64,000 nt of DNA, from the NCBI GenBank assembly GCA_030693325.1, contig JAUYAV010000011.1, positions 1,368 through 65,367 on the forward strand, read 5' to 3'. Positions 2,632-59,253 of this stretch are shown here, piece by piece (within the stretch, counting starts at the first letter, position 1; each line of letters opens with the position of its first letter). A program made the translations under genes and the position numbers. The notes beneath the pieces were generated by a model, which had not been told where the DNA came from, searched no databases, and was given only the letters and a program-made list of their open reading frames with translations. Source of the DNA: a bacterium (GTDB lineage: Bacteria; Patescibacteriota; Minisyncoccia; UBA6257; MFKM01).

Positions 2632-2662
<31 letters not shown>

Positions 2663-2932
2663 GAGCCTAAATTTGTTAAAATTTTCGCAAGAAGATTTTA
2701 ATGAACGTTGCAAGATGGAAATTTTTCTTAAGTTTTAAAGCTTGAAACTTAAGATAAGAGTTACAAATTTGTTGGCTAGTCGAAACCGTTGGAAAGCGGT
2801 GCCAAAGAGAGTGATAGCCTCGTAGACAAAAGTCGGCAAACTCTTAGTTTTTCATTCTTAAGTACTCCGAGGCCAGACAACCTCGGAGGAATCCAGGAGT
2901 ACTATCTCCTAAGGCTAAATACACTTTGTGAT

Positions 2933-2968
<36 letters not shown>

Positions 2969-4938
2969 ATAGGCCGTTGAGGCCGGTGAAATAGAATCTG
3001 AAACCATATACTTACAAGGACTCGGAGCCTTACAATTTCGCAAGAAATAACGGGTGACGAGGTGCCTATTGAAGAATGAGCCAACGACTTTATTTGCATT
3101 GCAAGTTTAACCTCGCGAAGCGAGGGAAGCGAAGGGAAACCAAGTGTTAATAGCGCTAATAGCAGTGCGAGTAAGACCCGAAGCCAAGCGAGCTTGTCCT
3201 GGTCAGGATGAAGGCCGAAGAAATTCGGCTGGAGGTCCGAACCGGTGAGCCGTTCAACACTCTCGGATGAACTGGGATAAGAAGTGAAAAGCTAATCGAG
3301 CTTGGTAATAGCTGGTTCTCTCCAAAATAGTTTTAGGACTAGCGTCGGATAAATAGATTTCTGGGGGTAGAGCACTGGATGATTTGTAAAGGACGAAAGT
3401 TCGACAAATCAATCAAACTCCGAATACCAGATTTTGTTCTCCGGCAGTCAGACTACGGGGGCTAAGCTCCGTGGTCGCGAGGGAAAAAGCCCTGACCGCC
3501 GTCTAAGGTCCCAAAATGTATGCTAAGTGTTAAAGAAAGTCTCCAACCAGAGACAAATAGGAGGTTGGCTTAGAGGTAGCCATCCTTTAAAGAGTGTGTA
3601 ACAACTCACTATCCGATGGTTGGGGGCGTCTAAAATTTATCGGGGCTAAGCATACTACCGAAGACGCGGATTCGTTTTTTGTTTACAAAAAACGAGTGAT
3701 AGGAGAGCATTTCCAGCCGCTGTGAAGGTTGACCCGCGAGGGCGACTGGAGCGCTGGGAAGAGAGAATGTTGGCATGAGTAATCACAAATCAGATGAGAA
3801 ATCTGATCCCCGAAAATCCAAGGTTTCCTCCGCAACGAAAATCGACGGAGGGTTAGGCGGCCCTAAGGCAATGGCGAAAGCCGCAGCTGAAGGACAGTCG
3901 GTTGATATTCCGACCTGCCCATTAATTATCGATGGAGTGACAAAGAAAATAAAATCGCGCGCCTTAATGGTTTGGCGTCATTAATAATAAGATTGGGCAT
4001 CCAGGAAAATCCGGGTGCAAGCCTTTAGTGGCACCCAATCGTTTATCGAAGTAAGGCTAAGTTTTTACTTGGCTAATGCGATTGAAGAGTCTTTCAAGAA
4101 AACCTTCTAAGAGTTATGTTAATGGGCTCCGTACCGTAAACCGCCACAGGTGGGTGAGGCGAGGAGCCTCAGGGGAACGGGTAATTCTTCGTTAAGGAAC
4201 TCGGCAAAAAAGCAGACGTAAGTTCGCAATATGTCTTGGCTGACGCAAGTCAGCCCGCAGCGAAAGAATCTCTGGCGACTGTTTACCAAAAACACAGCTC
4301 CCTGCTAACTCGTAAGAGGATGTATAGGGGGTGACGCCTGACCGATGCGAGAAGGTTAACGGCGGGAGTGCTCTGACGCAAGTTGGAGTGCCCACTGCCC
4401 GAAGCCCTCGTCAATGTCCGCAGTAACTATAACTGTGTTAAAGTAGCGCAATTCCTTTTCAGGTAAGTTCTGAAGCGCACGAATGGCGTAACGATCGGAG
4501 AACTGTCTCAACGAAGAGCCCGATGAAAATGCGATTCCCGTGAAGACGCGGGGTACTGGCAGTAAGACGAAAAGACCCCGGGAGCTTTACTGCAGCTTGA
4601 TATTGTTTTTAGAACTTTAATGCGTAGTGTAGTGGGTAGGCTTTGAAGTTTCGCTTTCGGGCGGAATGGAGCCGACAATGAAACACCCATCTTTCGAGTT
4701 TTAAAATCTAATCTGAACGGCAAAAACGTTCGGAGACACTGTCTGGCGGGCAGTTTTAATGGGGCGTTATCCTCCTAAAGAGTAACGGAGGAGTTTATTA
4801 AGGTCGGCTTAGCCCGGATGGAAATCGGGCTGGACGCGTAAAGGCAAAAGCCGGCTTAACTGCAAGACTGACAAGTCGCGCAGATGCGAAAGCAGAACTT
4901 AGTGACCCGACGATTCTTTATAGAAAGGTCGGAGACAC

Positions 4939-4969
<31 letters not shown>

Positions 4970-5105
4970 GGTGGAGCCCGAGAGTCCATATCGACGGCTC
5001 CGCTCGGCACCTCGATGTCGGCTCACCCTATCCTGGGACTGAAGAAGGCCCCAAGGGTTTGGCTGTTCGCCAATTAAAAGGGTACGCGAGCTGGGTTCAA
5101 ACCGT

Positions 5106-5424
5106 TGAGTTCATAAACATAATTACGGTAATTGCCGTAATTACAGTAATTACTGTAATTTTTATGAATTGAACGGTTTGAATCCGAGGATTATGACATC
5201 AATCACGGCGGTTATAGAAAGTAATTTCTATATTCCAATAGTTTAATTAATTTAGCTAACTAATATCGGTGGAACCCTAATTGATGATTAGGGCAATACC
5301 GAGGGAATTCTTTATAAATTAAAGAAGCCCGTAGAGACTAAGCGTTAGCCTCCGCCAAAATTTTGTAAAAAAATGGGCGGATGAAGATATAGTCCAATAC
5401 ACTTAGTAATAAGTGACCAATATG
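5106..5424 (+). mobile_element. ORF-less group I intron in 23S rRNA at the I-CreI/I-CeuI-type site (exon CCGU|CGUGAGACAGG, about E. coli 2593-2596)
   Basis: exon homology breaks after gggttcaaaccgt and resumes at cgtgagacaggttggtctctatc; the 3' part has the group I P7/P3 signature ggcggatgaagatatagtcc; intron ends in G and the upstream exon in U. Confidence 0.7.
5121..5160. repeat. tandem array of the 8-bp palindrome GTAATTAC (9-bp period) inside the P1/P2 region of intron 1, embedded in a larger hairpin at 5097..5180
   Basis: aattacggtaattgccgtaattacagtaattactgtaatt; same array at 7511..7550 and 17545..17584. Confidence 0.8.
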
Positions 5425-5487
5425 CGTGAGACAGGTTGGTCTCTATCTACTGTCAGCGATGAATACTTGAGGGAAGTCGACTCTAGT

Positions 5488-6235
5488 AAACAAAATTTGC
5501 TACTTTCCGAAGTAATTCGGATTGAAAATTCGGCTAATAACGGTGAAATCTTACCATTTAATTATTACAATCGGTCTTGTGATAATTTACTTGAGGACCA
5601 AGAAATGCTAAGATAATACCGTGGGAAGTCAATCTAAAATCAACTTAGCTTATATAGCTGGATTTCTTGATGGCGATGGAAGCTTAATGCTTCAAATCAA
5701 AAAACGTAAAGAGGGGAATATATCCAAGAGGCGTTTCATGCTAACGATTTGTTTTTATCAAGATTCGCGCCATGATAAGCCCCTTTTATGGATTAGAAAA
5801 ATTTTGGGAATAGGTTATCTTTCCAAAAGAAAAGACGGAATGTCGGAATTAAGAATCAATGGCTTCCGCCAAACGGAAAAGATAATCAAATCTCTGTCGC
5901 CGTTCATTAAATTCAAGAAAGTCCAAGCTAAAATTCTTTTGGCATCGGCGAAGTTGCTTCAAAAAAGCAAACTAACCGGTAACGAATTAAAGAGATTGGT
6001 TGATAATATTCTGAAAATTCAATCAGAAAATTACACAACTAAAAGAAAGAAAACCAAAAGAGAATTGCTAAAAAATTTAGGTTTGACCCCGTAACGACTG
6101 AATTCCGCCGATTGGCGGATGAAGATAATATCAATTTTGATATTATAATACGCCGGCCCCGCTAAAATTTTATTTTTGTAAAAATTTAGGCGGGTGAAGA
6201 TATAGTCTGCGCACATAGTGATATGTGAATTCGTG
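5488..6235 (+). mobile_element. group I intron in 23S rRNA inserted in the sarcin-ricin loop region (exon CUCUAGU|ACGAGAGGACC), carrying a LAGLIDADG homing endonuclease ORF
   Basis: exon homology lost after ctctagt and regained at acgagaggaccgagttgaacg; 3' region has ggcgggtgaagatatagtctg (P7/P3-like); intron ends in G. Confidence 0.7.
5621..6094 (+). CDS. LAGLIDADG homing endonuclease (single-motif, I-CreI-like), intron-encoded, GTG start
   Basis: LAYIAGFLDGDGSL motif; lies wholly within intron 2. Confidence 0.8.
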   Translation: MGSQSKINLAYIAGFLDGDGSLMLQIKKRKEGNISKRRFMLTICFYQDSRHDKPLLWIRKILGIGYLSKRKDGMSELRINGFRQTEKIIKSLSPFIKFKKVQAKILLASAKLLQKSKLTGNELKRLVDNILKIQSENYTTKRKKTKRELLKNLGLTP

Positions 6236-6586
6236 ACGAGAGGACCGAGTTGAACGAACCTCTGGTCTACCGGCTTCAGCACCTGCTGAACCGCCGGGTA
6301 GCTATGTTCGGCCGGGATAAGCGTTGAAAGCATCTAAACGCGAAGCCCCTCCCAAGATTAAGTATCACTAAATAATTTATTATTTAGGTGGTCCCCAGAA
6401 GATTACTGGGTTGATAGGCCTTAGGTGTAAGCTCCGTAAGGAGTTCAGCCGAGAGGTACTAATAGACCATCTATTCTCTACCTCAAAAAGTTGTCTAAAA
6501 TCGTGCTTCACTATTGTTCGGCATAAATCGGCTTTATCAGCATTTATCAGCGTCAGTGGCGAGCGATAGCGAGGCACGAAAATATT

Positions 6587-6696
6587 CCTCGGTGATACAG
6601 TTTATGGTGTCCTACCCGTTCCCATTCCGAACACGGAAGTAAAAGCCATAAACGCCAATGATAGTCCTTCGGGGCGAAAGTAGGCTTTGCCGGGGA
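6587..6696 (+). rRNA. rrf: 5S rRNA
   Basis: CCCGTTCCCATTCCGAACACGGAAGT...GTAGG conserved core; terminal helix cctcgg/ccgggg; followed by a T-run. Confidence 0.8.
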
Positions 6697-6738: not shown

Positions 6739-7521
6739 ATGACCCCTCGCTTGGTTAAACAACTGCTTTACGGCGCTTTCTATTTTTTAATAATATTTAT
6801 TATTTTTTGGCTGATTTATATTTTATTTTTGAAACCCGCGCCCACTTGTTCCGATGGACATCGGAATCAAAACGAAATCGGCATTGATTGTGGCGGATTT
6901 TGTCCGTCCTGTGAATTAACCCAATTGAAAAATTTGGCGGGTGATTGGGCTTTAGTTTTGCCGGCTGGAGAAAACGGGATAACGCTGTTGGCTGAGATTA
7001 CTAATCCCAATTTGAATTTCGGGGCTGAAAGTTTTTCTTACCAATTCAAAATCATCGGCCCTTTCGGCTTACTGAAAACCGTTGGAGGTCAGTCATCTAT
7101 TTACAGCGGCGAAATAAAATATTTAATAGCAACCGCCGTTCCGGTTAATCCTCAAGACGCAAAACGGGTGGAACTGGAAATATCTGCCTCCAGTACTGTT
7201 TGGCAATCGCAGGAAAAAATGCCCAAACCTGATTTAGCGAATCCCTCTCATCAAACAGTAATTTCAAACGGAAGCGTAATAGTGAAAGGTATTATTAGAA
7301 ATAAAAGTCCTCTTTTAATATCTCAAACAAAAATCATAGCCCTTATTTATAATTTTGATGGAAGCCAAATCCTAAACGCGTCTTACACAACCTTAGCTGG
7401 CCTCAAAGGGGATGAACAGCGGGCCTTTTCCATTGGATTCCCGAAAGGCGATTGGACCAAAAAAATAGATACAAACAGAACCAAGATTTTTATTGAACCC
7501 CAAATTACCAAATTACAGTAA
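6739..7521 (+). CDS. hypothetical membrane-anchored protein with a Cys-rich segment
   Basis: 260 aa ORF; N-terminal TM FYFLIIFIIFWLIYILFL; CSDG...CGGFCPSC. Confidence 0.5.
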   Translation: MTPRLVKQLLYGAFYFLIIFIIFWLIYILFLKPAPTCSDGHRNQNEIGIDCGGFCPSCELTQLKNLAGDWALVLPAGENGITLLAEITNPNLNFGAESFSYQFKIIGPFGLLKTVGGQSSIYSGEIKYLIATAVPVNPQDAKRVELEISASSTVWQSQEKMPKPDLANPSHQTVISNGSVIVKGIIRNKSPLLISQTKIIALIYNFDGSQILNASYTTLAGLKGDEQRAFSIGFPKGDWTKKIDTNRTKIFIEPQITKLQ

Positions 7522-7550
7522 TTACAGTAATTGCCGTAATTACGGTAATT
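7511..7550. repeat. GTAATTAC tandem palindrome array overlapping the TAA stop of the upstream gene
   Basis: aattacagtaattacagtaattgccgtaattacggtaatt. Confidence 0.8.
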
Positions 7551-7558
7551 AAATTTTT

Positions 7559-8623
7559 ATGTTTAAGAAACTTGATTGGTGGCTTATCGGCGCTTTGATT
7601 TTTATGGCCGCGGCCAGTTTAATATCGCTTTCGTCTACCAAACCGGCGCTTTTTCAAATCCAACTTATTTGGTACGCATTGAGCTTTTTGATTATTTTTT
7701 TTGCGGCAAAAATTAACTGGCGTTGGCTTATAACCCAAAATTGGTTTTTGCTGTCTTTCTATTGGCTGACGATCATTTTATTGATTGCCGCCTTTTTTTT
7801 CAGGCCTATCCGAGGCGCCCAAAGCTGGTTGATAATCGGAAATTTCCAGTTTCAGCCATCGGAATTGGCAAAAATTTCCCTGATTCTTATTTTCGCCAGT
7901 TTTTTCTCGCGCCGTTATCTTGAAGTTTCATTGATTAAAAACATAGCCGCTTCATTTTTTTATTTTTTTATTCCGGCGGCGCTGGTAGCGCTTCAACCGG
8001 CTTTGGGTATGGCTATAATTTTTTTCGGTATTTGGTTCAGTTTTTTGATAGTAAGCGGCTTGAAATGGCAGAGGATTTTCGCCAGTTTTTTAATTTTTAT
8101 TTTGGTATTTTCTTTTCTTTGGATGACTTTTCTGAGGCCCTACCAGAAAGAAAGGGTTTTGGGATTTATCTTTCCGGACCGGAATCCTTTGGGAACGAAT
8201 TATAATGTCATTCAGTCAAAAATCGCCATCGGTTCGGCGGGATTATTCGGAAAAGGCTTCCAGCAGGGGACGCAAAGCCGGCTGGGTTTTCTGCCTGAAG
8301 CCCAAACCGATTTTATTTTTTCCGCTTTCGTGGAAGAATGGGGATTGGTCGGCGGCCTTCTTTTGATTGCCGCTTTTTTGCTGATTATTTTCAGAATAAT
8401 TAAAATTGGCATCAAATCGGAAGGCAACTGCGCCAAATTTATTTGTTTGGGCGCCGCTATCGCCCTCGGTTCGCAATTTTTCTTTAATATCGGTTCTTGT
8501 CTGGGGCTTTCACCGGTGGTGGGGATAACTTTTCCTTTTTTCAGTTACGGAGGATCTAGCTTATTGACTAACGCTTTGCTCATCGGTATAATACAAAATA
8601 TTGCAATTGAATCCTCGTTTTAA
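7559..8623 (+). CDS. SEDS-family peptidoglycan glycosyltransferase (RodA/FtsW)
   Basis: 10-TM ORF with SEDS motifs QPSELAKISLIL, LPEAQTDFIFS, FSYGGSS. Confidence 0.85.
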   Translation: MFKKLDWWLIGALIFMAAASLISLSSTKPALFQIQLIWYALSFLIIFFAAKINWRWLITQNWFLLSFYWLTIILLIAAFFFRPIRGAQSWLIIGNFQFQPSELAKISLILIFASFFSRRYLEVSLIKNIAASFFYFFIPAALVALQPALGMAIIFFGIWFSFLIVSGLKWQRIFASFLIFILVFSFLWMTFLRPYQKERVLGFIFPDRNPLGTNYNVIQSKIAIGSAGLFGKGFQQGTQSRLGFLPEAQTDFIFSAFVEEWGLVGGLLLIAAFLLIIFRIIKIGIKSEGNCAKFICLGAAIALGSQFFFNIGSCLGLSPVVGITFPFFSYGGSSLLTNALLIGIIQNIAIESSF

Positions 8624-9653
8624 CAAAAGGGTGAGTTTTATTTTGGTTGGCGGAATAATACTGGCAGCAGTCCTGATTTTGTTTTCTGTTTTTTATTTTA
8701 ACGGGTTGAAGCCGATAGGTTCGGATATAAAATTTGAATTGAAAATTGAAAAAGGGCAGGGATTGAAAGAAATTTCCGCCGCTCTTTCTCAAGCCCGGAT
8801 AATCCGCTCAATAACTGTTTTTAAACTTTACGCTATTTTTACGGGCAAAGCCCGGCATTTGAAATCAGGCATTTATCAATTGAACGGCCGCTTGAGCGTT
8901 CCGGAAATAATTAATTTTTTGATTGATGATTCAAGCCAAGAAGTTTCCATCACTATCACTGAAGGCTCAACTCTTAAAGAAATAGACCGGATTTTGAGTT
9001 CGGCAAATATTATCCCAAAAAATTCATTAGTTAGTTTTTATTTTCCCGTCCATGGCGGGTCCGCCGCAGGCGGAAAAAATGACGAACTAATAAAAGCTTA
9101 TCCTTTCTTGGAAGGTATTGACAATTTAGAGGGTTTCCTTTATCCTGATACTTATCGTTTCAAAATTGACTCTTCAGTCGAAGAGGCAGCTAAAAAATTT
9201 TTTGATAATTTTCAGAACAAAGCTTGGCCGTTAATAAGCCAAAAAAATAATTGGTATCAAATTTTGATTTTAGCTTCTATTTTAGAGAAAGAAGTTCCGG
9301 TTTTTAACGATCAGCAACTGGTGGCGGGGATTCTCAATAAGCGGATAAAAGTGGGAATGCCTATCCAAGTTGACGCGACTGTTCTTTATACTAAATGCCA
9401 AGGGGATTTTTATTCCTGTTCTCAGCGTAAGTTATCAACGGGCGATTTGAAATTGGATTCGCCTTATAACACTTATTTGAATTTAGGCTTGCCGCCGACA
9501 CCCATTGCCAATCCTGGTCAGATGGCGATACAGGCCGCTTTAAGTCCTAAGGCTTCAAATTATTGGTTTTATCTTTCAGATTCCCAAACGAAAGAAACGA
9601 TTTTTTCCGAAACTCTGGAAGATCAAAACAAAAATCGTCAAAAATATCTATAA
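8601..9653 (+). CDS. mltG: endolytic murein transglycosylase MltG (YceG family), paralog 1
   Basis: N-terminal TM; YPDTYRF; VDATVLYT; NTYLNLGLPPTPIANPG. Confidence 0.85.
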   Translation: MQLNPRFNKRVSFILVGGIILAAVLILFSVFYFNGLKPIGSDIKFELKIEKGQGLKEISAALSQARIIRSITVFKLYAIFTGKARHLKSGIYQLNGRLSVPEIINFLIDDSSQEVSITITEGSTLKEIDRILSSANIIPKNSLVSFYFPVHGGSAAGGKNDELIKAYPFLEGIDNLEGFLYPDTYRFKIDSSVEEAAKKFFDNFQNKAWPLISQKNNWYQILILASILEKEVPVFNDQQLVAGILNKRIKVGMPIQVDATVLYTKCQGDFYSCSQRKLSTGDLKLDSPYNTYLNLGLPPTPIANPGQMAIQAALSPKASNYWFYLSDSQTKETIFSETLEDQNKNRQKYL

Positions 9654-9670
9654 AATTATTTAAGATTAAG

Positions 9671-12600
9671 ATGAATTCTTTAACAAAGAAAAATTTCTCT
9701 TCTTATCAAAAACCGTTTATTGAGGAGTCAAATCTAATAGAAATTCAAACTAAATCCTATAAGTGGCTTTTAACCGCCGGCTTAAAAGACCTTTTTGAAG
9801 AATTTTTTCCGATTAAGGACCGAACCGGAAAAGAACTGGAACTTCATTTTCTTGATTTTGATTTTGACGAACCCAAATATGATGAAATTCAAGCTCAGAA
9901 CAAAGAGCAAAGCTACGAAGCCACTCTCCGGGTTAAATTAAAATTAGTAAACAATCTCTCTAAAACCAGCAATACCCAAAAAATTTATTTCGGCGATTTC
10001 CCGATGATGACCGAGCGGGGAACGTTTATTATCAACGGCGTGGAAAGAGTGGTGATTTCCCAGTTAATCAGATCCGCCGGCGTTTATTTCTCGGCCGATA
10101 TTTTCCGGGGACGGAAATTTTTCGGCGCCAAAGTGATTCCTAATAGGGGCGCGTGGCTTGAAATAGAATCCGAACCCAACGGTTTCATCGGCGTAAAAAT
10201 AGACCGGAAAAGAAAAGTTCCGATTACCTGTCTTTTGAGAATTTTTGCCGCGGTTGCCGATAAAAAGAAATCGCTTACCAATGAAGAAATTCTTAAAATT
10301 TTCGGCAAAGCGATTGAACCGACTCTCCTGAAAGATACCGCCTCCAATGATGACGAATCTTTCGTGGAAATTTATAAAAGATTGCGTCCCGGCGATTTAG
10401 CTACGGCTGACAATGCCCGTTCTTTAATCCAGCCGATGTTTTCGCGATTTGACCGTTATGATATTTCTCCGGTTGGCCGTTTTAAAATTAATCAGCGGTT
10501 GGATCTTAAAAAAGAATCGCGACAACTTGATTTGGAAGATCTGATAGCAATTATCAAAGAAATTGTAAAACTTAATAACGAACCGATGGCCGAAGCCGAT
10601 GATATTGACCACCTCGGTAATCGCCGCGTGAGAGCGGTGGGAGAATTGGTTCAGAACAGATTGCGGGTCGGGTTCGCCAGAATGCGCAGGGTTATTCAGG
10701 ACAGGATGTCAACCTTAAACGCTATGGAAATATCAATGCCGACACAGTTGATTAATCCCAAAATTTTGATAGCGGTGGTAAAGGAATTCTTTATGCTTTC
10801 CCAGTTTTCTCAGTTTATGAACCAAGAAAATTTCTTGGCCGAACTTGAGCATAAGCGTTTGCTTTCGGTTTTGGGTCCCGGCGGATTGACTCGCGAGCGG
10901 GCCGGATTTGAAGTCCGCGATGTTCATCGTTCTTACTACGGACGTATTTGCCCGATTCAAACTCCCGAAGGAGCTAATATTGGATTGGTCAATCACTTAG
11001 CCAATCTCAGCCGGGTGAATGAATTCGGTTTCCTGGAGGCGCCATATTATAAAGTTAAAAATGGGATAGTCGGTTTGGAAGTGATCTGGCTTGACGCTTT
11101 TGAGGAAGAAAAATATAACATCGCTCACGCCGCCATTGATATTGATAAAAAAGGAAAAATTTTAGAATCCACGGTTGAAGCGAGAATTAAAGGCGAGCCG
11201 GCCACTTGTTTAAGAGAAGAACTTGATTTTATTGATGCCGCTCCGCATCAGGTTTTTTCCCCGGCCGCTTCCTTGATTCCTTTTATTGAACACGATGACG
11301 CCAACCGGGCGTTAATGGGTTCAAACATGCAACGACAAGCCGTTCCGCTGATTAAACCGGAAGCTCCGTTAGTAGGCACCGGGCTGGAAGGAAAAATCGC
11401 CGAGAATTCCCACCAAGTGATTACCGCTCCGGCTGACGGAGAAATTACCGTCGTTGACGCTAAACATATTGAGCTGAAAACTGCCGCGGGAACAAAAAAA
11501 TATGATTTGATTAAATTCAAACGGTCCAATCAATCAACCTGCATCTCTCAATATCCGGTTATCAAAAAAGGACAAAAAATAAAGAAAGGGGATTTTTTAA
11601 CCAGCGCCTCTTCAATAGACAATGGCCAGTTGGCATTAGGGCAGAATCTTTTAGTGGCTTTCACTCCGTGGGAAGGAGCCAATTTTGAAGATGCGGTTAT
11701 TCTTTCGGAGAGAGTAGTGAATGATGACCGTTTCACGTCCATACATATTGAAGATCACTACTGTGACGTCCGCGAAACCAAACTTGGCCCGGAAATTACT
11801 ACTCCTGATATTCCCAATGTATCCGAAGATAAATTAAGAAACCTTGATGAAGAGGGAACTGTTAGAATTGGAACCGAAGTTAACCCGGATGATATTTTGG
11901 TGGGAAAAATTTCTCCAAAAGGGGAATCTGAATTAACCTCCGAAGAACGTTTATTGAGGGCTATTTTTGGCGAAGAAGCCCGCGATGTTAAAGACACTTC
12001 TCTGGTAATGCCTCACGGAGAACAAGGGCGGGTTATTGGCATAAAAATTTCTTCCCGTGAAAAAGGAGACCAACTTGACCCGGGCGTCATAAAAAGAATC
12101 CAAATCCAGGTAGCCCAGTTAAGCAATATCCAGGTCGGCGATAAATTGACGGGCCGCCACGGAAATAAAGGCGTCATTTCTCAAATCAGACCGGTTGAAG
12201 ACATGCCTTATCTTGAAGATGGAACGCCGGTTGACGTGATTCTTAATCCTTTGGGCGTTGCTTCCCGGATGAATATCGGCCAAATTTTGGAAACCCATTT
12301 GGGTTTTGCCGCCAAAAAATTAGGATATCAGGCGGTTACTCCGATTTTCACCGGCGCTTCTGAAGACCAAATAAGAGAAGAACTCAAGAAAGCCGGTCTG
12401 CCGGAAGACGGAAAAGTAAAAATTTTTGACGGCCGGACCGGTGAAGCTTTCCGTAATCCGATAACGGTCGGCTACATATATGTAATGAAGCTTAACCACT
12501 TGGTTAAAGATAAAATTCACATGCGGTCTACCGGCCCCTACTCTCTTATCACTCAACAGCCCTTGGGCGGCAAAGCGCGTCTTGGCGGCCAGCGTTTCGG

Positions 12601-15600
12601 AGAAATGGAAGTCTGGGCCCTTGAAGGGTACGGCGCCAGTCATACGCTTCAGGAAATGCTTACTATTAAATCCGATGACGTAATGGGCCGTTCTTCAACT
12701 TTTGAATCCATAATCAAAGGAGAAAAAATCAAAAAACCCAGTTTACCGGCTTCCTTCAATGTTTTGGTAAGTGAAATTAAAAGCTTGGGATTGGACGTGG
12801 AAATAATAAAATCCAACGACCAAAAAGACAGGTTGGAAAAAGACCTTAAAGATATTCAGGCTATTTCCATAAAATTGGCCTCGCCGGAAAAAATTATTTC
12901 TTGGTCTTCAGGAGAAGTCACTAAAGCCGAAACCATCAACTACCGCACCCAACGACCCGAAAAAGACGGATTATTTTCCGAGAGAATTTTCGGACCGACC
13001 AAGGACTGGGAATGTTATTGCGGCAAATATAAAAAAATCCGTTACAAAGGCGTGGTCTGCGACAAGTGCGGCGTTGAAGTCACTCGCTCAATAGTCAGAC
13101 GCGAACGGATGGGGCACATTAATTTAGCCGCTCCGGTTGTTCATATTTGGTTTCTGAAAAGCGTCCCTTCAAGATTAAGTTTGATTCTTGACGCGCCCCT
13201 GCCGAAACTGGAAAAAGTCATTTATTACGCCTCCTATATTGTCACGGCTATTAATAAAGACAGCAAAGATTATGAATTTAAAAAGAAAGAACTGCTTGCC
13301 GAAAATATCAAACCAGGGACAATTTTGAACGAGAACGAATATCTTGATTTAAGCGAACGTTTTGAAAAAACCTTGGAAATTAAATCCGGCGCCGAGGCGA
13401 TTCGGAAAATTTTAGAGAACTTAGACCTTAAAACTCTGGTTCATCAGCTGGAAAAAGAACTAGAAGAGACCAAAGACGCCAATCGCCAAATACGAATTTT
13501 AAAACGGCTCAATTTGGTAAAATCCATGATAAAATCCGGCATCAGACCCGAATGGATGATTATGAATGTCTTGCCGGTTTTGCCTCCCGATTTAAGGCCG
13601 ATGGTCGCTTTAGACGGCGGTCGTTTCGCCACTTCCGACCTTAACGATCTTTATCGGAGAGTTATTAATCGCAATAATCGTTTGAAGAAACTGCTTGAAT
13701 TGAAAGCGCCGGAAGTGATTGTCACTAACGAAAAGCGAATGTTGCAGGAAGCCGTTGACGCTTTAATAGACAACGCCAGTTCCATCGGCGCCCAACAACT
13801 TTCCGCTCAGCGCCGTCCATTAAAATCCCTGGCTGATATGCTCCGGGGCAAACAGGGCCGTTTCCGCCAAAATCTTTTGGGCAAACGGGTTGATTATTCC
13901 GGCCGCTCCGTAATTGTCGTCGGCCCCGAATTAAAACTTGGCGAATGCGGTTTGCCTAAAAAAATGGCCTTGGAACTTTTTCGTCCTTTTATTATCCATA
14001 AAGTTATTGAACGCAGTTTGGCTCATAATATTAAAAACGCCAATAAATTTATTGACCAGGGTTCGGACGAGGTCTGGGCGATTTTAGAAGAAGTCATCGC
14101 GGACAAAAAAGTACTGCTTAACCGGGCGCCGACTCTCCACCGTTTGAGCATCCAGGCCTTTAAACCGATTCTTGTGGAAGGATTGGCTATTAAAATTCCG
14201 CCGCTGGTTTGCGCGGCTTTTAATGCCGACTTTGACGGCGACCAAATGGCCGTCCATCTGCCGCTTTCCGAAGAAGCTCAATATGAAGCCAGAGAACTCA
14301 TACTCTCTACGGTTAATCTCTTGAAACCGGCTTCAGGCCACCCGGTCGTCAGTCCTACTCAGGATATCGTCTTGGGCTGTTATTTCCTTACCAAACTCCA
14401 GCCGGAAGCGAAGGGAAAAAATTCAATCTTTTCAAGCTTTGCCGAAGCCACTTTGGCTTATGAGCGCGGTTTTCTTGACCTTAACGCGCCGATTAAAATC
14501 GCCCTTCCGAAAAGAAGCAAAAAACTCATAGATACAACTTATGGCCGTTTAATCTTCAATAATCAGCTTCCGAAAAATTTTGATTTTATCAACGAACTGC
14601 TCAATAAAACCGCTCTCTCAAAAATCAGTTCCTTGATTATAGAAAAAGTGGGCATCAATCAAGCCGCCGTTTATTTGGACAACATTAAAAATATCGGCTT
14701 TGAATACGCCACCATTTCCGGAATTACCTGGGGAATGGACGATTTGAAAATACCGGAACAAAAACCTCAAATCATTGAAAAAGCGGAAAAAGAAGTAGCC
14801 ACGGTCAATGACGAATTCCGCCAGGGATTATTAACTAACGAAGAAAGAAAAAATCAGGTTATTATTATTTGGGATAAAACCAATAAAGAAATCGCCAGTC
14901 TTGTTCCTAAAACATTCCATCCCGACAATCCTGTCTTTATTATTTTAGATTCCAAAGCCCGCGGCGGCTGGGCGCAAACGGCCCAGATGACCGGCATGAA
15001 AGGATTGGTTATCAACCCGAGTGGAGAAGTCATTGAATTGCCCGTTAAATCATCTTATAAAGAAGGATTGGACATTTTAGAATACTTTATTTCCATTCAC
15101 GGCGCCCGCAAAGGCCAGGCCGACACCGCGCTCAGAACGGCAGAAGCCGGATATTTGACCCGCCGTTTGATTGATGTAGCCCAGGACGTAATAATCCAGG
15201 AGGAGGATTGCCAAACAGAAGAAGGAATTGAAATTTTCAGAAAAGAAGGGGACGAATACGGTTATCATTTTGCCGAGCGGCTTTATTCGCGAACGGCTTT
15301 GGAAAATATAAAAATTAAAAGCAAAATTATCGTGAAAGCCGGTGAAGTTATCGGCCGCGAAGCCGCCGAGCTTATTGATAAATCAAAAGTGGAATCAGCT
15401 AAGGTCCGCTCGCCGATTACCTGTAAAACTCTTTACGGAATTTGTTCGCGCTGTTACGGCTTGGATTTAGGAACTAACCAGCCGATAAAACTGGGAGAAG
15501 CTGTCGGGATTATCGCCGCTCAATCAATCGGCGAGCCCGGAACTCAGCTTACTTTGAGAACCTTCCATTCCGGCGGCGTGGCCGGGATTGATATCACCCA

Positions 15601-16363
15601 CGGTTTGCCGCGGGTAGAAGAGGTTTTTGAAGCCCGTTCGCCTCGCGGGAAAGCCATCCTGGCCGAAACTGATGGCGTTGTTGAATCCATTAAAGAAGAT
15701 AATTCAATAAAAATCGTAAAAATAAAAAGTTCGGCTTCAAAAGGCAAAAAAGCCAAATATTTTGAATATACGATTCCTCGGACGACCATCCTTTTGGTAA
15801 AAACCAATGACAAAATCGTTAAGGGCCAGCAAGTCAGCGAAGGTTCAATTAATTTAAAAGAGCTTTTAATCGCCCAAAATAGCCGAGAAGTGGAGCGCTA
15901 TATCGTCAACGAAATTCAAAAAATTTATGTCCCCGAAGGAACTATTATCAATGACAAGCATATTGAAATAATCATCCGCCAAATGTTTTCTCGGGTAACA
16001 ATTAAAGAAGAAGGAGATACTAATTTTGTCATCGGCGATGTCATTGAAAAATCAAAATTCTTGGAAGTTAACCGGCAAACCAAAAAACTCAAAGGCGAAC
16101 CGGCAAAAGCCCAGCTTATTTTGATGGGCATCACCCAGGTCAGCTTAACCACTGAAAGTTTCCTCTCGGCGGCTTCTTTCCAGGAAACTTCTCGCGTCTT
16201 GGTAGGGGCGGCCATCAGCGGCAAGGTTGATAAACTCCGCGGCCTTAAAGAAAACGTGATTATCGGCCGCTTGATTCCGGCTGGCATCGGCTGGCGGGGA
16301 ATACCCGTGGAAGCCGTCAGCGACGAAGAAGAAAATAAAGAGATTGAAGAAGGCAACAAATAA
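9671..16363 (+). CDS. rpoBC: fused DNA-directed RNA polymerase beta-beta' (rpoB-rpoC) in one uninterrupted reading frame; junction near nt 12850
   Basis: RpoB motifs ([15 protein letters not shown], rif region [18 protein letters not shown]) run without a stop into RpoC motifs ([28 protein letters not shown]); ATG at 9671 begins [11 protein letters not shown]. Confidence 0.9.
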
Positions 16364-17339: not shown

Positions 17340-17546
17340 ATGAATAAGAAACAGTGTTTTTTTTGTTCCCAAAATTTAAAAGACGTTGATTATAAAGAGA
17401 TTGAATTACTCCGGCGTTTTGTGTCCGGCCAAAGCAAAATCATTGACCCGCGATATTCCGGCATCTGCGCCAAACACCAGAGAAAACTGGCGCAAGCGAT
17501 AAAAAGAGCCCGGTATTTAGGATTATTGCCGTTTGTTTCAAGATAA
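17340..17546 (+). CDS. rpsR: 30S ribosomal protein S18
   Basis: CFFC...DYKEIELLRRFVSGQSKI...RKLAQAIKRARYLGLLPF. Confidence 0.9.
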   Translation: MNKKQCFFCSQNLKDVDYKEIELLRRFVSGQSKIIDPRYSGICAKHQRKLAQAIKRARYLGLLPFVSR

Positions 17547-17584
17547 TTACAGTAATTACTGTAATTACCGTAATTACGGTAATT
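17545..17584. repeat. GTAATTAC tandem palindrome array overlapping the rpsR TAA stop
   Basis: aattacagtaattactgtaattaccgtaattacggtaatt. Confidence 0.8.
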
Positions 17585-17593
17585 GAATAAAAA

Positions 17594-18124
17594 ATGTCTT
17601 TCGATTTTTATATTTTTCAAGCTTTCCATAATTTAGCCAATAAGTCTAATTTTTTTGATGGGCTGATTGTTTTTTTGGCCGGCTACCTCCAGTATGTTTT
17701 ATTAGCTTTGGCGATTTTTCTGTTGCTTGCGAAAATAAAAGATTGGCGCCATCAGCTTTATATCGTTTCGGTTTTTCTACTTTCGGCTATTATCAGCCGG
17801 GGATTGATTACGGAAATTATCCGATTTTTCTATCACCGATTAAGGCCATTTTTGGCTCTCAATCTTACGCCCCTAGTCAAAGATTTCAGCGGCTCTTTCC
17901 CTTCCGGCCATATGACTTTGTATTTCGCTCTGGCTTTAACTATTTTTTTGATAAGCCGAAAATGGACCTGGTTTTTTGTCGCCAGCGTTATTTTGATGGG
18001 CCTGGCAAGAATCGCCGCCGGCGTTCACTGGCCTTCGGATATTATAGGCGGAATTCTAATTGCTATTATCAGTTATTTTATTGTCAAAAAAATTCTTCCC
18101 TCAAACAATAAAACCGCCAATTAA
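17594..18124 (+). CDS. PAP2-family membrane phosphatase (undecaprenyl-diphosphatase or PgpB-like)
   Basis: PAP2 motifs RLRP, PSGH, ARIAAGVHWPSD. Confidence 0.8.
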   Translation: MSFDFYIFQAFHNLANKSNFFDGLIVFLAGYLQYVLLALAIFLLLAKIKDWRHQLYIVSVFLLSAIISRGLITEIIRFFYHRLRPFLALNLTPLVKDFSGSFPSGHMTLYFALALTIFLISRKWTWFFVASVILMGLARIAAGVHWPSDIIGGILIAIISYFIVKKILPSNNKTAN

Positions 18125-18142: not shown

Positions 18143-18226
18143 TGCCCGAGGAGAGAGTCGAACTCTCACGACCTAAACGGTCAATGGATTTTGAGTCCAT
18201 CGCGTCTGCCATTCCGCCACCCGGGC
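18143..18226 (-). tRNA. tRNA-Leu (anticodon CAA), long variable arm
   Basis: hand-folded cloverleaf: acceptor gcccggg/ctcgggc, anticodon loop cuCAAaa, T-loop ttcgact. Confidence 0.75.
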
Positions 18227-18278: not shown

Positions 18279-18423
18279 GCCAAACCAAACTTGTCTGAGA
18301 AAATATCCCGCAGGCACTGAAAGATTGGTTTCGCCGTAGGCGAATTTCAGCGCCGAGGGAAAAGAAAATTTTGCCGCTGGAGCAAAATTATTCTGGTTTT
18401 CGAAGGCAAGTTTGGTTTGGCTA
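18279..18423 (+). repeat. copy A of a ~145-bp structured repeat family (16-bp terminal inverted repeat AGCCAAACCAAACTTG, conserved cores, variable internal hairpin)
   Basis: direct comparison with copies at 20663..20801, 43333..43476 and 57606..57748. Confidence 0.85.
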
Positions 18424-20344: not shown

Positions 20345-20356
20345 TTTTGTCCAGGA

Positions 20357-20383
20357 GCAAACCAAACTTGCCTTCGAAAACCA
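20357..20383. repeat. solo terminal fragment (gcaaaccaaacttgccttcgaaaacca) of the 145-bp repeat family
   Basis: matches the reverse complement of the family right end. Confidence 0.6.
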
Positions 20384-20400: not shown

Positions 20401-20630
20401 ATTTTTCACAAAACCTTTTCCGCCAGCAAATTTCCGTTCAGATAAATTATCTTCGCTCGTCCTCAGAAGGTAACGAAAAATATCGAACTCACCCAATCTT
20501 ACGAGGTTTAACCTCATAAGATTGGGATTCAGACAGCGAATATTTTTCTACTTCTTTCGTCCTCGCTCAGTAATTTATAACTTCACTTCAACAGGCTGGC
20601 TAAAAAAAGGTTTTGTGAAAAAAATCTTCC
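20401..20630. repeat. 230-bp imperfect long palindrome bounded by inverted repeats gatttttcacaaaacctttt / aaaaggttttgtgaaaaaaatc, centred on cgaggtttaacctca
   Basis: arms read on both strands; the central motif recurs at 22225 and 41424. Confidence 0.7.
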
Positions 20631-21822: not shown

Positions 21823-21862
21823 GTTCCCTCACTGATATACTTAAGTATATCAGTGAGGGAAC
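21823..21862. repeat. 40-bp perfect palindrome gttccctcactgatatacttaagtatatcagtgagggaac (core GATATACTTAAGTATATC)
   Basis: same core with different, still complementary flanks at 26281 and 26455. Confidence 0.85.
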
Positions 21863-22224
21863 TTATTACCCGGTGGCGGCGGTGAAAGTGCGGAGAGACT
21901 AAAGGAAGGGGAAATAACCATAGAAGACAAGAAATTCTATGAGGGATTTTTTGAGGAAATCGGGGAAGAACTAAGGAAATCAAAGGGAATGGGAGAGGGG
22001 AACAAAAAGCAGGATTAAATTATAGGCGGTAGGCTGTCCGCGCTAAAAGGCTTTGAGGGCAGATTCGTGGATGAGACGGCGATGAGTTTTGGGCTACCTA
22101 TAGATTCTAATTTCTCTTACTTGATATAGCCGCGAGCAAAGATTAAAATGGGCGGATAAAATCCCCAAAACTTTGCTTTAATATCGGAGGGATAATACTG
22201 TAAGAATTAATCTAGTATGAAGTA

Positions 22225-25331: not shown

Positions 25332-26243
25332 ATGTTTCAGAAAAATATTCCTTTAAAAAAATACACCAGTTTCAAAATCGGCGGACCGGCCGATTATTTT
25401 TTTAAAGTTAGAAAAATAAAGAATCTTATTGAAGCCGTTAAAGAAGCAAAACAAAATAAAATACCAATTTTCATTTTTGCTGGAGGAACTAAAATATTAG
25501 TCAGTGATAAGGGCATCAAGGGGTTAGTTATAAAAATTCAAACTTCAAAAATTGAAATTAAAAAAAACAGAATCATCAGTGAAGCGGGAGTTAATTTAAA
25601 TAAATTAGTAGCCGCGTCAATTAAAAACGGCTTAACCGGCTTGGAATGGGCGATTGGCATTCCCGGCACAATCGGCGGCGCTATTCACGGCAACAGCGGG
25701 GCCTTCGGCGCTTCTATTTCCAACTCCGTAAAAAGCGTCACCGCCTTAAATCCGAAAAATTTTAAAATTAAAAAATATTCCGGCAAGCAATGCCGCTTCG
25801 GCTATCGGGACAGTATTTTTAAAAAAAATAAAAATATCATTCTTTCGGTGGAATTGCAGTTGAAACAAAACAAATCAAAAAATAATTTGGAAACGATTAG
25901 AGGATATTTAAAAAGAAGAAAAGAAAGAATCCCTGAATATTACTCGGCCGGAAGTGTTTTCAAAAATCTTAAATTCAAATCTTTAAACAAAGACATCCAA
26001 AAAATTATTCCCAAAAATAAAATCAAAGGCGGCATGGTGCCGGCGGGCTATCTTATTGAAAACTGCGGGCTAAAAGGAAAAAGTAGCGGTGGAGCGAAAA
26101 TTTCCGAACAACAAGCCAACATTATTATTAATTTTAATAAAGCCAGAGAAAAAGACGTTTCTTCGTTAATTGATTTAGCTAAAAAACAAGTCAAGAAAAA
26201 ATTCGGGGTTAAATTAGAAGAGGAAATAATTTATTTGGGCTAA
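25332..26243 (+). CDS. murB: UDP-N-acetylenolpyruvoylglucosamine reductase MurB
   Basis: YTSFKIGGPADYF; GIPGTIGGAIHGNSGAFG; GYRDS. Confidence 0.85.
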   Translation: MFQKNIPLKKYTSFKIGGPADYFFKVRKIKNLIEAVKEAKQNKIPIFIFAGGTKILVSDKGIKGLVIKIQTSKIEIKKNRIISEAGVNLNKLVAASIKNGLTGLEWAIGIPGTIGGAIHGNSGAFGASISNSVKSVTALNPKNFKIKKYSGKQCRFGYRDSIFKKNKNIILSVELQLKQNKSKNNLETIRGYLKRRKERIPEYYSAGSVFKNLKFKSLNKDIQKIIPKNKIKGGMVPAGYLIENCGLKGKSSGGAKISEQQANIIINFNKAREKDVSSLIDLAKKQVKKKFGVKLEEEIIYLG

Positions 26244-26280
26244 GCGAACCAAACTTGCCCTCGGCCTCGCTTTGTCCGAG

Positions 26281-26318
26281 ATCTTATACTGATATACTTA
26301 AGTATATCAGTATAAGAT
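26281..26318. repeat. 38-bp perfect palindrome atcttatactgatatacttaagtatatcagtataagat (GATATACTTAAGTATATC family)
   Basis: read directly. Confidence 0.85.
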
Positions 26319-26454
26319 TATCCTCTTGATTAGAATATCGGATTTAAAGCATTAGATTAGAGTATTAGTATCGGAACAAACCCGATATTTCCTATATTTT
26401 TATTTCCTATATTTACAATATTTTCATTTATTTCCATTTTACATTTCTTCCAAC

Positions 26455-26478
26455 AGCGATATACTTAAGTATATCGCT
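26455..26478. repeat. 24-bp palindrome agcgatatacttaagtatatcgct (same core family)
   Basis: read directly. Confidence 0.8.
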
Positions 26479-26626
26479 CCGGCAACATAGACTAAGCCCA
26501 ATGTACCCGTCGCAAAGGTTTATTTTATCTCCGATGTCTATCGGGGGACCCTGCCCGCCTTCGCGGTGCCGTAGCCCCGCTTCGGTGGGCGGAAGCCCGT
26601 ACCCGTCACATAGTTATCCCCATTTA

Positions 26627-31464: not shown

Positions 31465-32585
31465 AGATAGCTTTAGCGCATGATTATTTAAACCAGTGCG
31501 GTGGAGCGGAAAACGTTCTGAAAGTTTTAGCCGAAATTTTTCCCGAAGCGCCCATTTATACTCTTTTCTACGACGAAAATAAAACCCGGAGTTATTTTAA
31601 AAACCGCGTCAAAAAAACCAGTTTCCTTGATTTTGGAATCGTCAGGAATCATCATCGGGCTTTTATCCCTTTACTGCCGTTGGCCAGCAGCAATTTAAAG
31701 ATTGAACCTGAATATGATTTGGTTATATCTTCCAGCGCCGGCTATGCCAAAGGTTTTAATTCCAAAAACGCCTTCCATATTTGTTATTGCCATACTCCGC
31801 TCCGCTATGCCTGGGAGGAAAATTATCTTCAAGGATTGGATTTATTCCATATACCCTTATTAAAAACTTTGGCTAAACCAGTACGCGCCGCTTTAAGAAG
31901 CTGGGATAAAAAAGCCAGCCGCCGAGTGGATGTATTTATCGCCAATTCTTATTTTATCGCCCAAAAAATCAAGAATTTCTATAATCGGGAAGCCGAAGTA
32001 ATCTATCCGCCGATTGATTTGAAAAAATTCTATCCCGAACCCTCTCAAAAAACCGGTGATTATTTTTTGATGGTAGGCCGACTGCTTCATTACAAACGTT
32101 TTGACCTCGGCATTGAGGCCTTTAATCAACTAGGGCTTCCTTTAAAAATAGTCGGTGAAGGTCCGGAACTTCAAAAATTAAAATCAATGGTTAAATCTCC
32201 TTTGATAGAATTTTGCTCTTATATTGAGAACCTGGACGAGCTCCGGAAAATTTATAGCGGAGCTAAAGCTTTAATATTCCCCCAGATTGAGGACTTTGGG
32301 ATGGTGGCGGCCGAAGCCCAAGCCTGCGGCTTGCCGGTAATAGGCTATAACACCGGAGGAGTTAAAGAGATTATTAAAGAAGGGAGAACCGGCTTATTAT
32401 TTAACGAGCAAACGCCGGAAGCCTTGATAAAGGCAGTTTATTTATTTGAAAAAACTGATTTTTCCAAATCGGAAATCATTGAAAATGCCCAACGATTTTC
32501 CAAAGAAAATTTTAAATCAAAATTTCAAGAAATAATCAATAAAATAAAAAATGAAGAAAACAAAATAAATCATTTACTATTGTAA
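31461..32585 (+). CDS. glycosyltransferase family 4
   Basis: GT-B C-terminal EDFGMVAAEAQACGLPVIG...GGVKE. Confidence 0.8.
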   Translation: MKIALAHDYLNQCGGAENVLKVLAEIFPEAPIYTLFYDENKTRSYFKNRVKKTSFLDFGIVRNHHRAFIPLLPLASSNLKIEPEYDLVISSSAGYAKGFNSKNAFHICYCHTPLRYAWEENYLQGLDLFHIPLLKTLAKPVRAALRSWDKKASRRVDVFIANSYFIAQKIKNFYNREAEVIYPPIDLKKFYPEPSQKTGDYFLMVGRLLHYKRFDLGIEAFNQLGLPLKIVGEGPELQKLKSMVKSPLIEFCSYIENLDELRKIYSGAKALIFPQIEDFGMVAAEAQACGLPVIGYNTGGVKEIIKEGRTGLLFNEQTPEALIKAVYLFEKTDFSKSEIIENAQRFSKENFKSKFQEIINKIKNEENKINHLLL

Positions 32586-32614
32586 TTCCGCGATCGTGGA
32601 ATTACAATAGTAAA
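32573..32614. repeat. 42-bp near-perfect palindrome tttactattgtaattccgcgatcgtggaattacaatagtaaa overlapping the GT4 stop codon
   Basis: second copy (perfect) at 59191..59232. Confidence 0.85.
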
Positions 32615-32642
32615 TTTATAATGACTAAAGAAAACAAAAAAT

Positions 32643-41760: not shown

Positions 41761-41768
41761 ATAACTTT

Positions 41769-48710: not shown

Positions 48711-48721
48711 AAATTTAGCTG

Positions 48722-48790
48722 CGGGGCTAGGAATCGGACCTAGATTCCATGGTTCAGAGCCATGTTGCCTACCATTAGCAGACCCCGCAA
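48722..48790 (-). tRNA. tRNA-Gln (anticodon CTG), short D-arm
   Basis: acceptor gcggggt/gccccgc; anticodon loop ctCTGaa; T-arm ctagg-tccgatt-cctag. Confidence 0.55.
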
Positions 48791-59232: not shown

Positions 59233-59253
59233 TTCAAAATTCAATTTTTCTAA

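Follow-up and report, generated by a model that had tools for sequence, protein, structure and literature searches.

What kind of genetic element keeps an elaborate fold while the sequence of its stems changes from copy to copy, and how does it come to be dispersed among the housekeeping genes of a bacterium? This question is raised by a stretch of 64,000 nt from a bacterium of the Patescibacteriota (contig JAUYAV010000011.1, positions 1,368 to 65,367, forward strand; the whole stretch is hereafter called the window), which carries four full copies and two fragments of a repeat of about 144 nt. An earlier note, made from the sequence alone, had described these copies and fragments and proposed either a mobile element or a small RNA (sRNA) family. 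In this work, we extended the analysis to copies from other genomes and metagenomes, and our results point to an undescribed, non-coding, structure-constrained family of interspersed repeats of the Patescibacteria (candidate phyla radiation, CPR), non-autonomous, mobile and recombining, of the kind of the MITEs (miniature transposable elements with inverted repeats) and the Rickettsia palindromic elements (RPEs); we give this reading a probability slightly below 60%. In kind, the RPE is its closest analogue.

Copies, taxon range and fold

We located the element with covariance models run over the whole window, in which the four full copies scored 147-165 bits (E ~1e-34 to 1e-38). With model R1, built from these four copies, the values were 152-165 bits (E ~1e-34 to 1e-37), and all remaining matches over the 64 kb, with filters off, were generic hairpins of at most 32 bits. 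A second, broader model built from 52 copies gave the same window result, with no further diverged copies in the window or in syntenic relatives. The six parts are the following:

18279-18423, + strand: copy A, full, terminal-stem type T1, between a tRNA gene (-, 18143-18226) and parA (+, 18490); 164.8 bits
20661-20804, + strand: copy B, full, T1, in the convergent spacer of parB (+) and greA (-), 3' end ~31 nt from the greA stop codon; 154.1 bits
43333-43476, + strand: copy C, full, type T2 (a different terminal stem, fully compensated), between a hypothetical open reading frame (ORF, +) and a DEAD-box helicase gene (+); 151.9 bits
57606-57749, + strand: copy D, full, T1, between gltX (-) and an M23 peptidase gene (-), 3' end 1 nt from the gltX TAG stop codon (57750-57752); 160.4 bits
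20356-20383, - strand: solo 3'-terminal fragment (last 26-28 nt), starting 11 nt past the parB stop codon; reverse complement of the element 3' end, 100% over 26 nt (repeat finder)
26244-26264, - strand: short 3'-terminal fragment, GCGAACCAAACTTGCCCTCGG, right after the murB stop codon (26241-26243); 18/21 match to the reverse complement of the T1 3' end

The window copies are spaced 2-22 kb apart, and the window genes are all housekeeping. The four full plus-strand copies of the earlier note are thereby confirmed (copy A ending at 18422 or 18423), together with its conserved segments, the constant bulge G(A/C)UUGGU, the P3 hairpin loop CGCUGGA and the compensatory stem changes. The two end fragments are also real, but their orientation had to be revised: both are minus-strand 3' ends, and 20356-20383 is not a plus-strand 5' end. 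The last 26 nt of copies A and B recur without a mismatch, in reverse complement, at 20358-20383; the fragment is broken between TATTC and TGG, a recurrent point, and together with the copy B 3' end it makes an inverted repeat that is perfect over 26 bp. The 18/21 match of the second fragment comes from a hand alignment that BLAST and nhmmer fragment searches did not recover, making it the weakest of the six parts.

Outside the window, scanning one genome per species for an exact pattern gave 20 stretches (designated here, as are the metagenome stretches, by L numbers), 18 of which carry the element (85-162 bits), with an adjoining second copy in L017. All 18 true matches are metagenome-assembled genomes of Patescibacteria, comprising Paceibacterota, Azam-, Jorgensen-, Colwell- and 'Saccharibacteria', while the two non-CPR stretches had no model match and are attributed to chance. 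The metagenome scan yielded 43 stretches, of which 42 match the covariance model at E up to 1e-6 and the remaining one, L047, is a chance match; L002, L007 and L047 were accordingly discarded as pattern matches without the element. Overall, the scans added ~60 copies, every one in Patescibacteria, and 53 copies were analysed after duplicate removal. Because two conserved segments are fixed in the collecting pattern, the copies gathered underrepresent the true diversity of the family. The two adjoining copies of L017 are in opposite orientation, and elsewhere copies occur on either strand; the single shared orientation emphasized by the earlier note was therefore a small-sample effect, true of the four full window copies and not of the two window fragments.

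RNAalifold, applied to the four window copies alone, returned a three-way junction with 25 compensated pairs. Its parts, in copy A coordinates, are:

18279-18296/18404-18421, + strand: helix P1a, 18 bp
18297-98/18402-03, + strand: tandem G.A loop, invariant 2x2
18299-18304/18396-18401, + strand: helix P1b, 6 bp, final U.G pair in 50/52 copies
18306-09/18357-60, + strand: helix P2a, UCCC/GGGA, followed by the internal loop GCA/GA
18313-22/18345-54, + strand: helix P2b, 10 bp
18323-29, + strand: bulge GAUUGGU, 7 nt, constant in the family as G(A/C)UUGGU
18330-35/18339-44, + strand: helix P2c, 6 bp, its cap mostly a C-GNA-G triloop
18357-18369, + strand: A-tract
18363-75/18380-94, + strand: helix P3, 13 bp, loop CGCUGGA, an A bulged out
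between 18393 and 18394, + strand: recurrent breakpoint, TTC before it and TGG after it

The strand from P2 to P3 reads GAGGGAAAAGAAA and the strand after P3 reads UAUUCUGGUU, and P3 itself sits between the A-tract and a U-tract. Conserved nucleotides are those of the junction, bulge and loops, not those of the termini; variation is greatest in the outer 6-12 bp of P1, where at least eight unrelated sequence types occur, all of them complementary. When 52 copies were aligned to the model, 95.9% of cells held standard pairs and 47 of the 57 pairs had changed on both sides. No shuffle out of 500 reached any observed covariation measure, and sliding the 3' partners by 1-3 columns left 33-54% paired. 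Because this alignment had been fitted to the model, the analysis was repeated with MAFFT and RNAalifold on 28 diverse copies, giving the same fold with 42 of 55 pairs compensated. The co-varying stems and conserved unpaired nucleotides thus uphold the proposal that the target of selection is a single strand in its folded state and not a pair of terminal repeats recognised by a protein. Inspection by eye of the P3 loop and the bulge against the other conserved strands gave no convincing complementarity for a pseudoknot, and these segments show no variation to judge by.

Regarding the folding strand, the plus strand folds better in 52 of the 53 copies under RNA parameters (mean -74.1 vs -64.9 kcal/mol) and in 50 of the 53 under DNA parameters, and G.U pairs outnumber A.C pairs by 138 to 35. 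Furthermore, the tandem G.A loop would become a U.C/C.U loop if read on the opposite strand. We conclude from these models that the folded strand is the plus strand as written in the window, which would act as either single-stranded DNA (ssDNA) or RNA. Among the C-GNA-G triloops, GAA is the commonest, GCA the second and GUA the third; such triloops are reported (Hirao; Yoshizawa) to form unusually stable DNA mini-hairpins, and the preference fits such hairpins. Two other motifs were considered and rejected: UNCG tetraloops on the reverse strand, which would move the stem register, and a hammerhead-like CUGANGA core, which is not conserved and is missing from copy C.

Turnover, fragments and position relative to genes

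Occupancy of orthologous sites is variable. The syntenic relatives L022 and L025 (ParB 82% and 73% identical) keep the order rpoBC-S6-SSB-S18-PAP2-parA-parB and have no copy in 21 kb; parB and greA overlap in L022, the window equivalent being 490 bp with the fragment and copy B, and the L022 contig bears a copy at another place. At a second site, just past the rpsI stop codon, a full T1 copy is present in L056 and L016 and a T2 copy in L057 and L069, and L071, from the window's own organism, holds a T2 copy followed by a 26-nt T1 remnant. The same site is empty in L072-L081, and it is taken by an unrelated structured spacer in L082 and L084. The T1 remnant of L071 shares the rare terminal-stem variant ACCCAGCC with the full T1 copy of L056, and L016 has the related ACCCAAAC.

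The copies also appear to exchange parts. Each helix occurs as a few discrete 'alleles' found in many combinations; L020 is a chimera with a T1 5' strand and a T2 3' strand, and the orthologous rpsI copies of L016 and L056 have P1 and P3 in common and different P2 modules. Such shuffled alleles and chimeras indicate exchange between copies. Fragments are unevenly distributed as well: a profile search by thirds gave 81 matches (3' third), 69 (middle third) and 75 (5' third), with the solo 5' matches mostly at chance level, and 3' end fragments are commoner than 5' end fragments. Breakpoints cluster at model positions 105-126, mainly between TTC and TGG at the foot of P3. Moreover, six loci (L062, L036, L033, L067, L068 and L071) hold arrays in which a full T2 copy is followed by 1-3 nt (G, GC, AC or GAC) and then by a T1 3' fragment.

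Two further structures were observed near these arrays and at the rpsI site. Inside a T1 3' fragment of L067 (~4850-4920), a 30-nt perfect palindrome (CCCCGTTACTCAAC TAG TTGAGTAACGGGG) is flanked on either side by CAAG and resembles one more very small hairpin element, bearing a duplication of 4 nt. The post-rpsI spacer of L082 (3455-3560; also in L083 and L084) is a different structured segment of ~105 nt with a CTGC-CGCTGGA-GCAG hairpin, whose loop is that of P3; partial likeness to it is also found upstream of the T2 copies of L062, L036 and L057, and it may be a related module.

Two features of a plain MITE, target-site duplications and conserved termini, were both absent: the best joint direct repeat averaged 4.08 nt against 3.76 nt for mismatched flanks, none exceeding 6 nt. 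Flanks carried no motif other than an A at -1 (66%), which pairs with the last base, T, of the element, and no promoter was found at a fixed distance from the copies. The mobile-element idea itself agrees with the variable occupancy of orthologous sites, but the IS200/IS605-type derivative suggested along with it is not supported: no conserved target tetranucleotide is found in the 5' flank, and no Y1 or TnpB gene was seen in the sequence covered, i.e., the window and the loci.

Position relative to genes is strongly biased. The gene on the 3' side of the element lies on the opposite strand in 32 of the 45 cases among the 53 copies; in ~21 of the 53, a distance of 0-20 nt separates the element 3' end from a convergent gene's stop codon, and the median gene distance is ~15 nt on the 3' side vs ~170 nt on the 5' side. 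In the window, four of the six parts (copies B and D and both fragments) lie near stop codons, at the distances listed above. The folded plus strand is consequently antisense to the abutting gene. For a link to the replication strand, also raised by the earlier note, the signals were mixed: with the GC-skew turn at ~30-46 kb, copies A and B fit a lagging-strand-template rule and copy D, across the turn, does not, and a gene-orientation proxy for this rule gave 14 opposite/opposite vs 8 same/same pairs.

The A-tract and U-tract flanking P3 resemble a bidirectional terminator. On its minus strand (P3 plus T-tract), copy C passes a simple terminator scan, whereas the T1 copies, with an A+U-rich P3, fail it, and no enrichment of T-runs or terminators was found in the flanks. 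As judged from sequence, a terminator role of P3 for the abutting gene is possible.

Intragenic copies (4 of the 53) retain the nucleic-acid fold (88-156 bits). In L065, L037 and L088, the ORF of a cysteine desulfurase (iscS, Aminotran_5) reads through the reverse complement of the element, which splits the Pfam domain in two with an insert of ~47 residues (...FRNQNNF(A/S)PA(A/E)KFS.PSA...PAG(Y/C)SS...), and sense copies lie in frame within the double zinc ribbon of a ComF-like protein (L010) and in a Wzy_C membrane protein (O-antigen ligase, L018). The iscS insert occupies the same position in 13 of 25 aligned CPR cysteine desulfurases, being absent in some close relatives and a decayed remnant in others, and its peptides vary precisely where the helix alleles vary. 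At this site, the empty allele of L086 bears an A+T-rich palindrome of 11 bp (TGAAATTTTTT-AATAATC-AAAAAATTTCA); in filled alleles, the arms of a matching palindrome enclose the element and add an outer stem. As a general feature, such an outer stem ('P0') was rejected, being significant only in L065, L037, the second copy of L031 (5699-5841), L013 and L009. Stop-free readings make up ~40% of the six-frame translations of the copies vs 10% for shuffled copies, and the modal copy length, 144 nt (23 of 53), equals 48 codons. Properties of this kind have been reported for RPEs (PMC10969869). The restriction to Patescibacteria, the adjacency to stop codons and the intragenic copies had all been overlooked in the earlier note.

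In the window, the reverse-complement frame of copy D is open throughout, and a long ORF at 56294-57757 (-) reads across it. About five tandem 7-nt AAAATAG units at 57565-57600 lie directly 5' of copy D and give, on the minus strand, a hydrophobic stretch of the same ORF; since this ORF runs over copy D as well as the AAAATAG repeats, it is uncertain where the M23 peptidase gene really starts. An inverted repeat at 20402-20625 (TTTTCACAAAACCTTTTCCGCCAGC / GCTGGCTAAAAAAAGGTTTTGTGAAAA) encloses ~170 nt with a further hairpin. In L013, the outer stem of the element consists of a motif resembling it, AAAA(T/C)CTTTTC...AGCCAG, paired with the complement, and the motif is found upstream of several other copies. 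It may represent a second repeat family or a preferred palindromic target.

Which explanation fits best

The element matches no known family. Rfam 15 (hammerhead, twister, HEARO, IS605-orfB, retron msr, Y RNA and 6S included), scanned over two copies, gave no match at gathering or permissive thresholds, in agreement with the earlier note; the top sub-threshold matches were the unrelated eukaryotic families MIR169_2 (22 bits, threshold 50) and SNORA65 (18 bits, threshold 70). No match to the element was obtained in plasmid and phage collections (BLAST) or viral contigs (pattern scan), and a full-text literature search, with the conserved sequence strings and through papers on CPR repeats and RNA motifs, returned nothing relevant. 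A 2024 review of prokaryotic MITEs makes no mention of the CPR/Patescibacteria phylum (PMC10969869).

A mechanism can be proposed in which the fold, and not a terminal sequence, would be recognised by a trans-encoded enzyme, most likely acting on folded ssDNA (candidates being HUH/Y1-type enzymes or a structure-specific recombinase); alternatively, an RNA intermediate might be copied by a reverse transcriptase. Only copies keeping the fold would then propagate or convert, which would account for the compensatory changes, and reading of the three-way junction by shape would explain why terminal pairs co-vary and why there are neither conserved ends nor duplications. The P3 hairpin with its A- and U-tracts may further terminate the abutting gene, a service that would make insertions tolerable in very compact genomes. 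A more specific version, in which the element is the substrate of an undescribed CPR structure-guided system, whether an enzyme recognising an ssDNA three-way junction and cutting between TTC and TGG or a reverse transcriptase, is a speculation to which we give a small chance.

Several observations weigh against the reading of the element as a mobile repeat family. Identity among the window copies is just 68-83%, so no recent burst is evident, and the copies are related to one another, so sequence counts do not equal independent events. The strand signal of the G.U pairs is carried mostly by three columns, and at least one G.U occurs in 28 columns, at least one A.C in 21. The comparison of filled with empty sites spans genomes of 57-89% protein identity, and even the nearest pairs diverge by 11-40% in protein sequence and have unalignable intergenic DNA; at that distance, loss is not cleanly separable from gain and insertion joints are undefined. 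Metagenome assembly may misjoin at repeats and possibly created some of the arrays, and five contigs (L021, L071, L042, L048 and L058) end inside the element. The terminator role is a pattern match in a single copy, with flank T-runs not enriched. Finally, no mobilising gene was found within 64 kb of this genome plus ~0.5 Mb of short contigs: reverse-transcriptase and HUH motifs were absent from 483 kb of loci, and the window has no reverse transcriptase, HUH or transposase gene.

Four known classes of repeat, besides the integron attC site, offer comparisons. RPEs are hairpin repeats found between genes and in frame inside unrelated ORFs (PMC10969869). Both they and the element are hairpin repeats of ~100-150 bp dispersed in the small genome of a host-dependent bacterium, intergenic as well as in frame in unrelated housekeeping genes, where they add a conserved peptide, without a known transposase and with copies at orthologous sites across species. 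The likeness is nevertheless one of kind, drawn from RPE descriptions: the host phylum is another, which makes sequence homology with RPE-1 to RPE-10 unlikely, and an RPE is a simple palindrome, whereas the element folds into a three-way junction whose unpaired nucleotides are conserved and whose termini are hypervariable but compensated. We know of no report in RPEs of the bias towards positions after the stop codons of convergent genes, or of the excess of 3' fragments, that the element displays.

Repetitive extragenic palindromic (REP) sequences and BIMEs (REPIN) resemble it in being extragenic, located at gene 3' ends, high in copy number and structure-defined, in lacking target duplications and in clustering in both orientations; they are thought to be folded ssDNA substrates of a single-copy, trans-acting HUH enzyme, the RAYT Y1 transposase. 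RAYT is reported (Ton-Hoang 2012) to cleave at a CT dinucleotide beside the REP. The recurrent break of the element likewise falls between C and T at a hairpin foot. Unlike the element, with 144 nt, three helices and no conserved GTAG, a REP is a palindrome of 20-40 nt with a conserved 5' GTAG, and in-frame intragenic copies are unreported for REPs. The PATEs of IS200/IS605 share the lack of classical conserved terminal repeats and of target duplications and the strand-specific folded hairpins; however, their left-end and right-end hairpins are separate, while the ends of the element pair together, they need a conserved 5' tetra- or pentanucleotide target where the element has only the A at -1, and the orientation of the element relative to genes is, if anything, contrary to the lagging-template rule.

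Integron attC sites also combine variable sequence with conserved structure, a single folding strand antisense to the gene whose stop codon they abut, a similar size range (57-141 nt) and an apical structure that may branch. The element differs in having no R''/R' core sites (RYYYAAC / GTTRRRY), cassette arrays or nearby integrase; its T2 ends (GGACTTCC ... GGAAGTCC) have no AAC/GTT core, its neighbours are housekeeping genes, and some copies are intragenic. Correia (NEMIS) and ERIC sequences, lastly, are like the element imperfect palindromes of ~100-155 bp in transcribed intergenic regions, able to form long RNA hairpins and to affect neighbouring transcripts; unlike it, they have conserved terminal repeats, with a TA duplication in Correia, and neither a three-way junction nor compensated hypervariable ends.

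Among the alternatives, the one that survives best, while still unlikely, is that the copies are structured sRNA genes acting in trans or in cis (e.g., as a protein sponge or antisense), transcribed from the plus strand and multiplied by duplication rather than by transposition. Multi-helix covariation, conserved unpaired nucleotides and a three-way junction are typical of functional RNAs, the plus strand is almost always the better folder, and the YUGG motif, exposed three times (once each in bulge, P3 loop and junction strand), could provide repeated protein-binding sites. The plain sRNA family of the earlier note nonetheless fits poorly: no promoter-like signal stands at a fixed distance and no terminator follows P1; 3' fragments, nested arrays and chimeras are frequent; intact in-frame copies lie antisense in iscS and sense in the ComF-like and Wzy_C genes; orthologous-site occupancy varies; and the P2 apical loop is mainly C-GNA-G rather than the GNRA or UNCG usual in RNAs.

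A non-autonomous retroelement akin to a short interspersed nuclear element (SINE) is distinctly improbable. Here a reverse transcriptase, of the host or of an intron, would start at the 3' end of a plus transcript and make its copy at a DNA 3'-OH close to gene ends; if it stalled or switched template at the P3 base, 5'-truncated copies and arrays would result. The excess of 3' fragments, the breakpoints at the P3 foot, the arrays of the six loci, the strand-specific folding and the non-conserved termini all fit this reading. It is opposed by the L071 remnant, whose match to the L056 stem variant makes it look like an in-situ relic and not a co-inserted truncated cDNA, as well as by the lack of target-site duplications, of an A-tail or other 3' tail, of a promoter carried by the element, and of the reverse-transcriptase motifs searched for above.

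We hold it very improbable that the element is a host-selected 3' end module, i.e., a terminator or insulator for convergent or packed genes spread by recombination only. The copies abutting convergent-gene stop codons, P3 between its two tracts, the terminator-like minus strand of copy C and the rpsI site occupied across diverged genomes speak for it, but a terminator needs P3 alone, leaving the conserved junction, the P2 bulge and a 24-bp P1 unexplained; the better-folding strand is antisense to the abutting gene, many copies lie away from stop codons or even within genes, and just one passes the terminator scan. Least credible of all is a double-stranded MITE derived from a DDE-transposase insertion sequence, with the terminal stem as inverted repeats and the structure incidental: its size (~145 bp), intergenic location, imperfect ~25-nt terminal inverted repeats and solo ends recall Correia, ERIC or other MITEs, but there are no target-site duplications (4.08 vs the null 3.76), the outermost 6-12 bp are the most variable part and still complementary, the internal P2b, P2c and P3 co-vary too, stability is strongly strand-asymmetric, and conservation resides in unpaired and junction nucleotides rather than in the ends.

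Other features of the window and significance

The window displays additional features apart from the element. In the rRNA operon (2401-6696), a group I intron (5190-5416, 78 bits) interrupts the 23S gene not far from the 3' end of that gene, a LAGLIDADG endonuclease ORF is located at 5621-6094 and the 5S gene at 6587-6696; a 26-nt inverted repeat (2383-2408 / 6473-6498) brackets the 23S gene like a processing stem. A second LAGLIDADG-domain ORF (48797-49495, -) adjoins a tRNA gene (48719-48789, -) outside any recognised intron. Arrays of a 9-nt tandem unit, with the palindrome GTAATTAC (AATTACNGT x4-6), are located at 5112-5173, 7502-7563 and 17536-17606, within or next to the rRNA operon and in the S18-PAP2 interval, and could be protein binding-site arrays. 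At 9563-16363, a single ORF of 2266 aa contains both RpoB and RpoC domains (fused rpoBC), a fusion also called in L022 and L025. A LOOT RNA (RF03000, 92 bits) at 41574-41694 ends just within the start of a Pfam-less ORF (41676-42935). Regarding other palindromes, a near-perfect one of 46 nt (ATTTACTATTGTAATTCC(G/A)CGATCGTGGAATTACAATAGTAAAT) occurs twice (32572-32617 and 59188-59235), and a small family based on CTGATATACTTAAGTATATCAG occurs three times (21823-21865, 26281-26322 and 26448-26489). Finally, a gene for a LigT-like 2'-5' RNA ligase/phosphoesterase lies at 51281-51856; its chemistry on RNA ends could be relevant should the element function as RNA.

The CPR/Patescibacteria constitute a big fraction of bacterial diversity, with genomes of ~1 Mb. 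Extrapolating from the window (4 copies in 64 kb), L056 and L031, the density would be ~1 copy per 8-16 kb, and the element would thus represent ~1% of such a genome. Its presence has practical consequences, since metagenome assemblies are broken by it, with several contigs terminating within copies, and predicted proteins such as cysteine desulfurase are lengthened by ~48 residues. With 47 covarying pairs, its fold is among the best-supported unannotated nucleic-acid folds for Rfam-type libraries, and its hypervariable yet always-paired termini suggest recognition of shape and not of sequence. Furthermore, the family provides a second system, independent of Rickettsia, in which to study the in-frame entry of palindromic repeats into genes and the agent of their movement. 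Should the structure-guided system outlined above exist and operate through a reverse transcriptase, the element would be the first bacterial SINE; and should that system be real, the stop-poor design of 48 codons would be a recurrent source of new peptide segments in essential proteins of minimal genomes.

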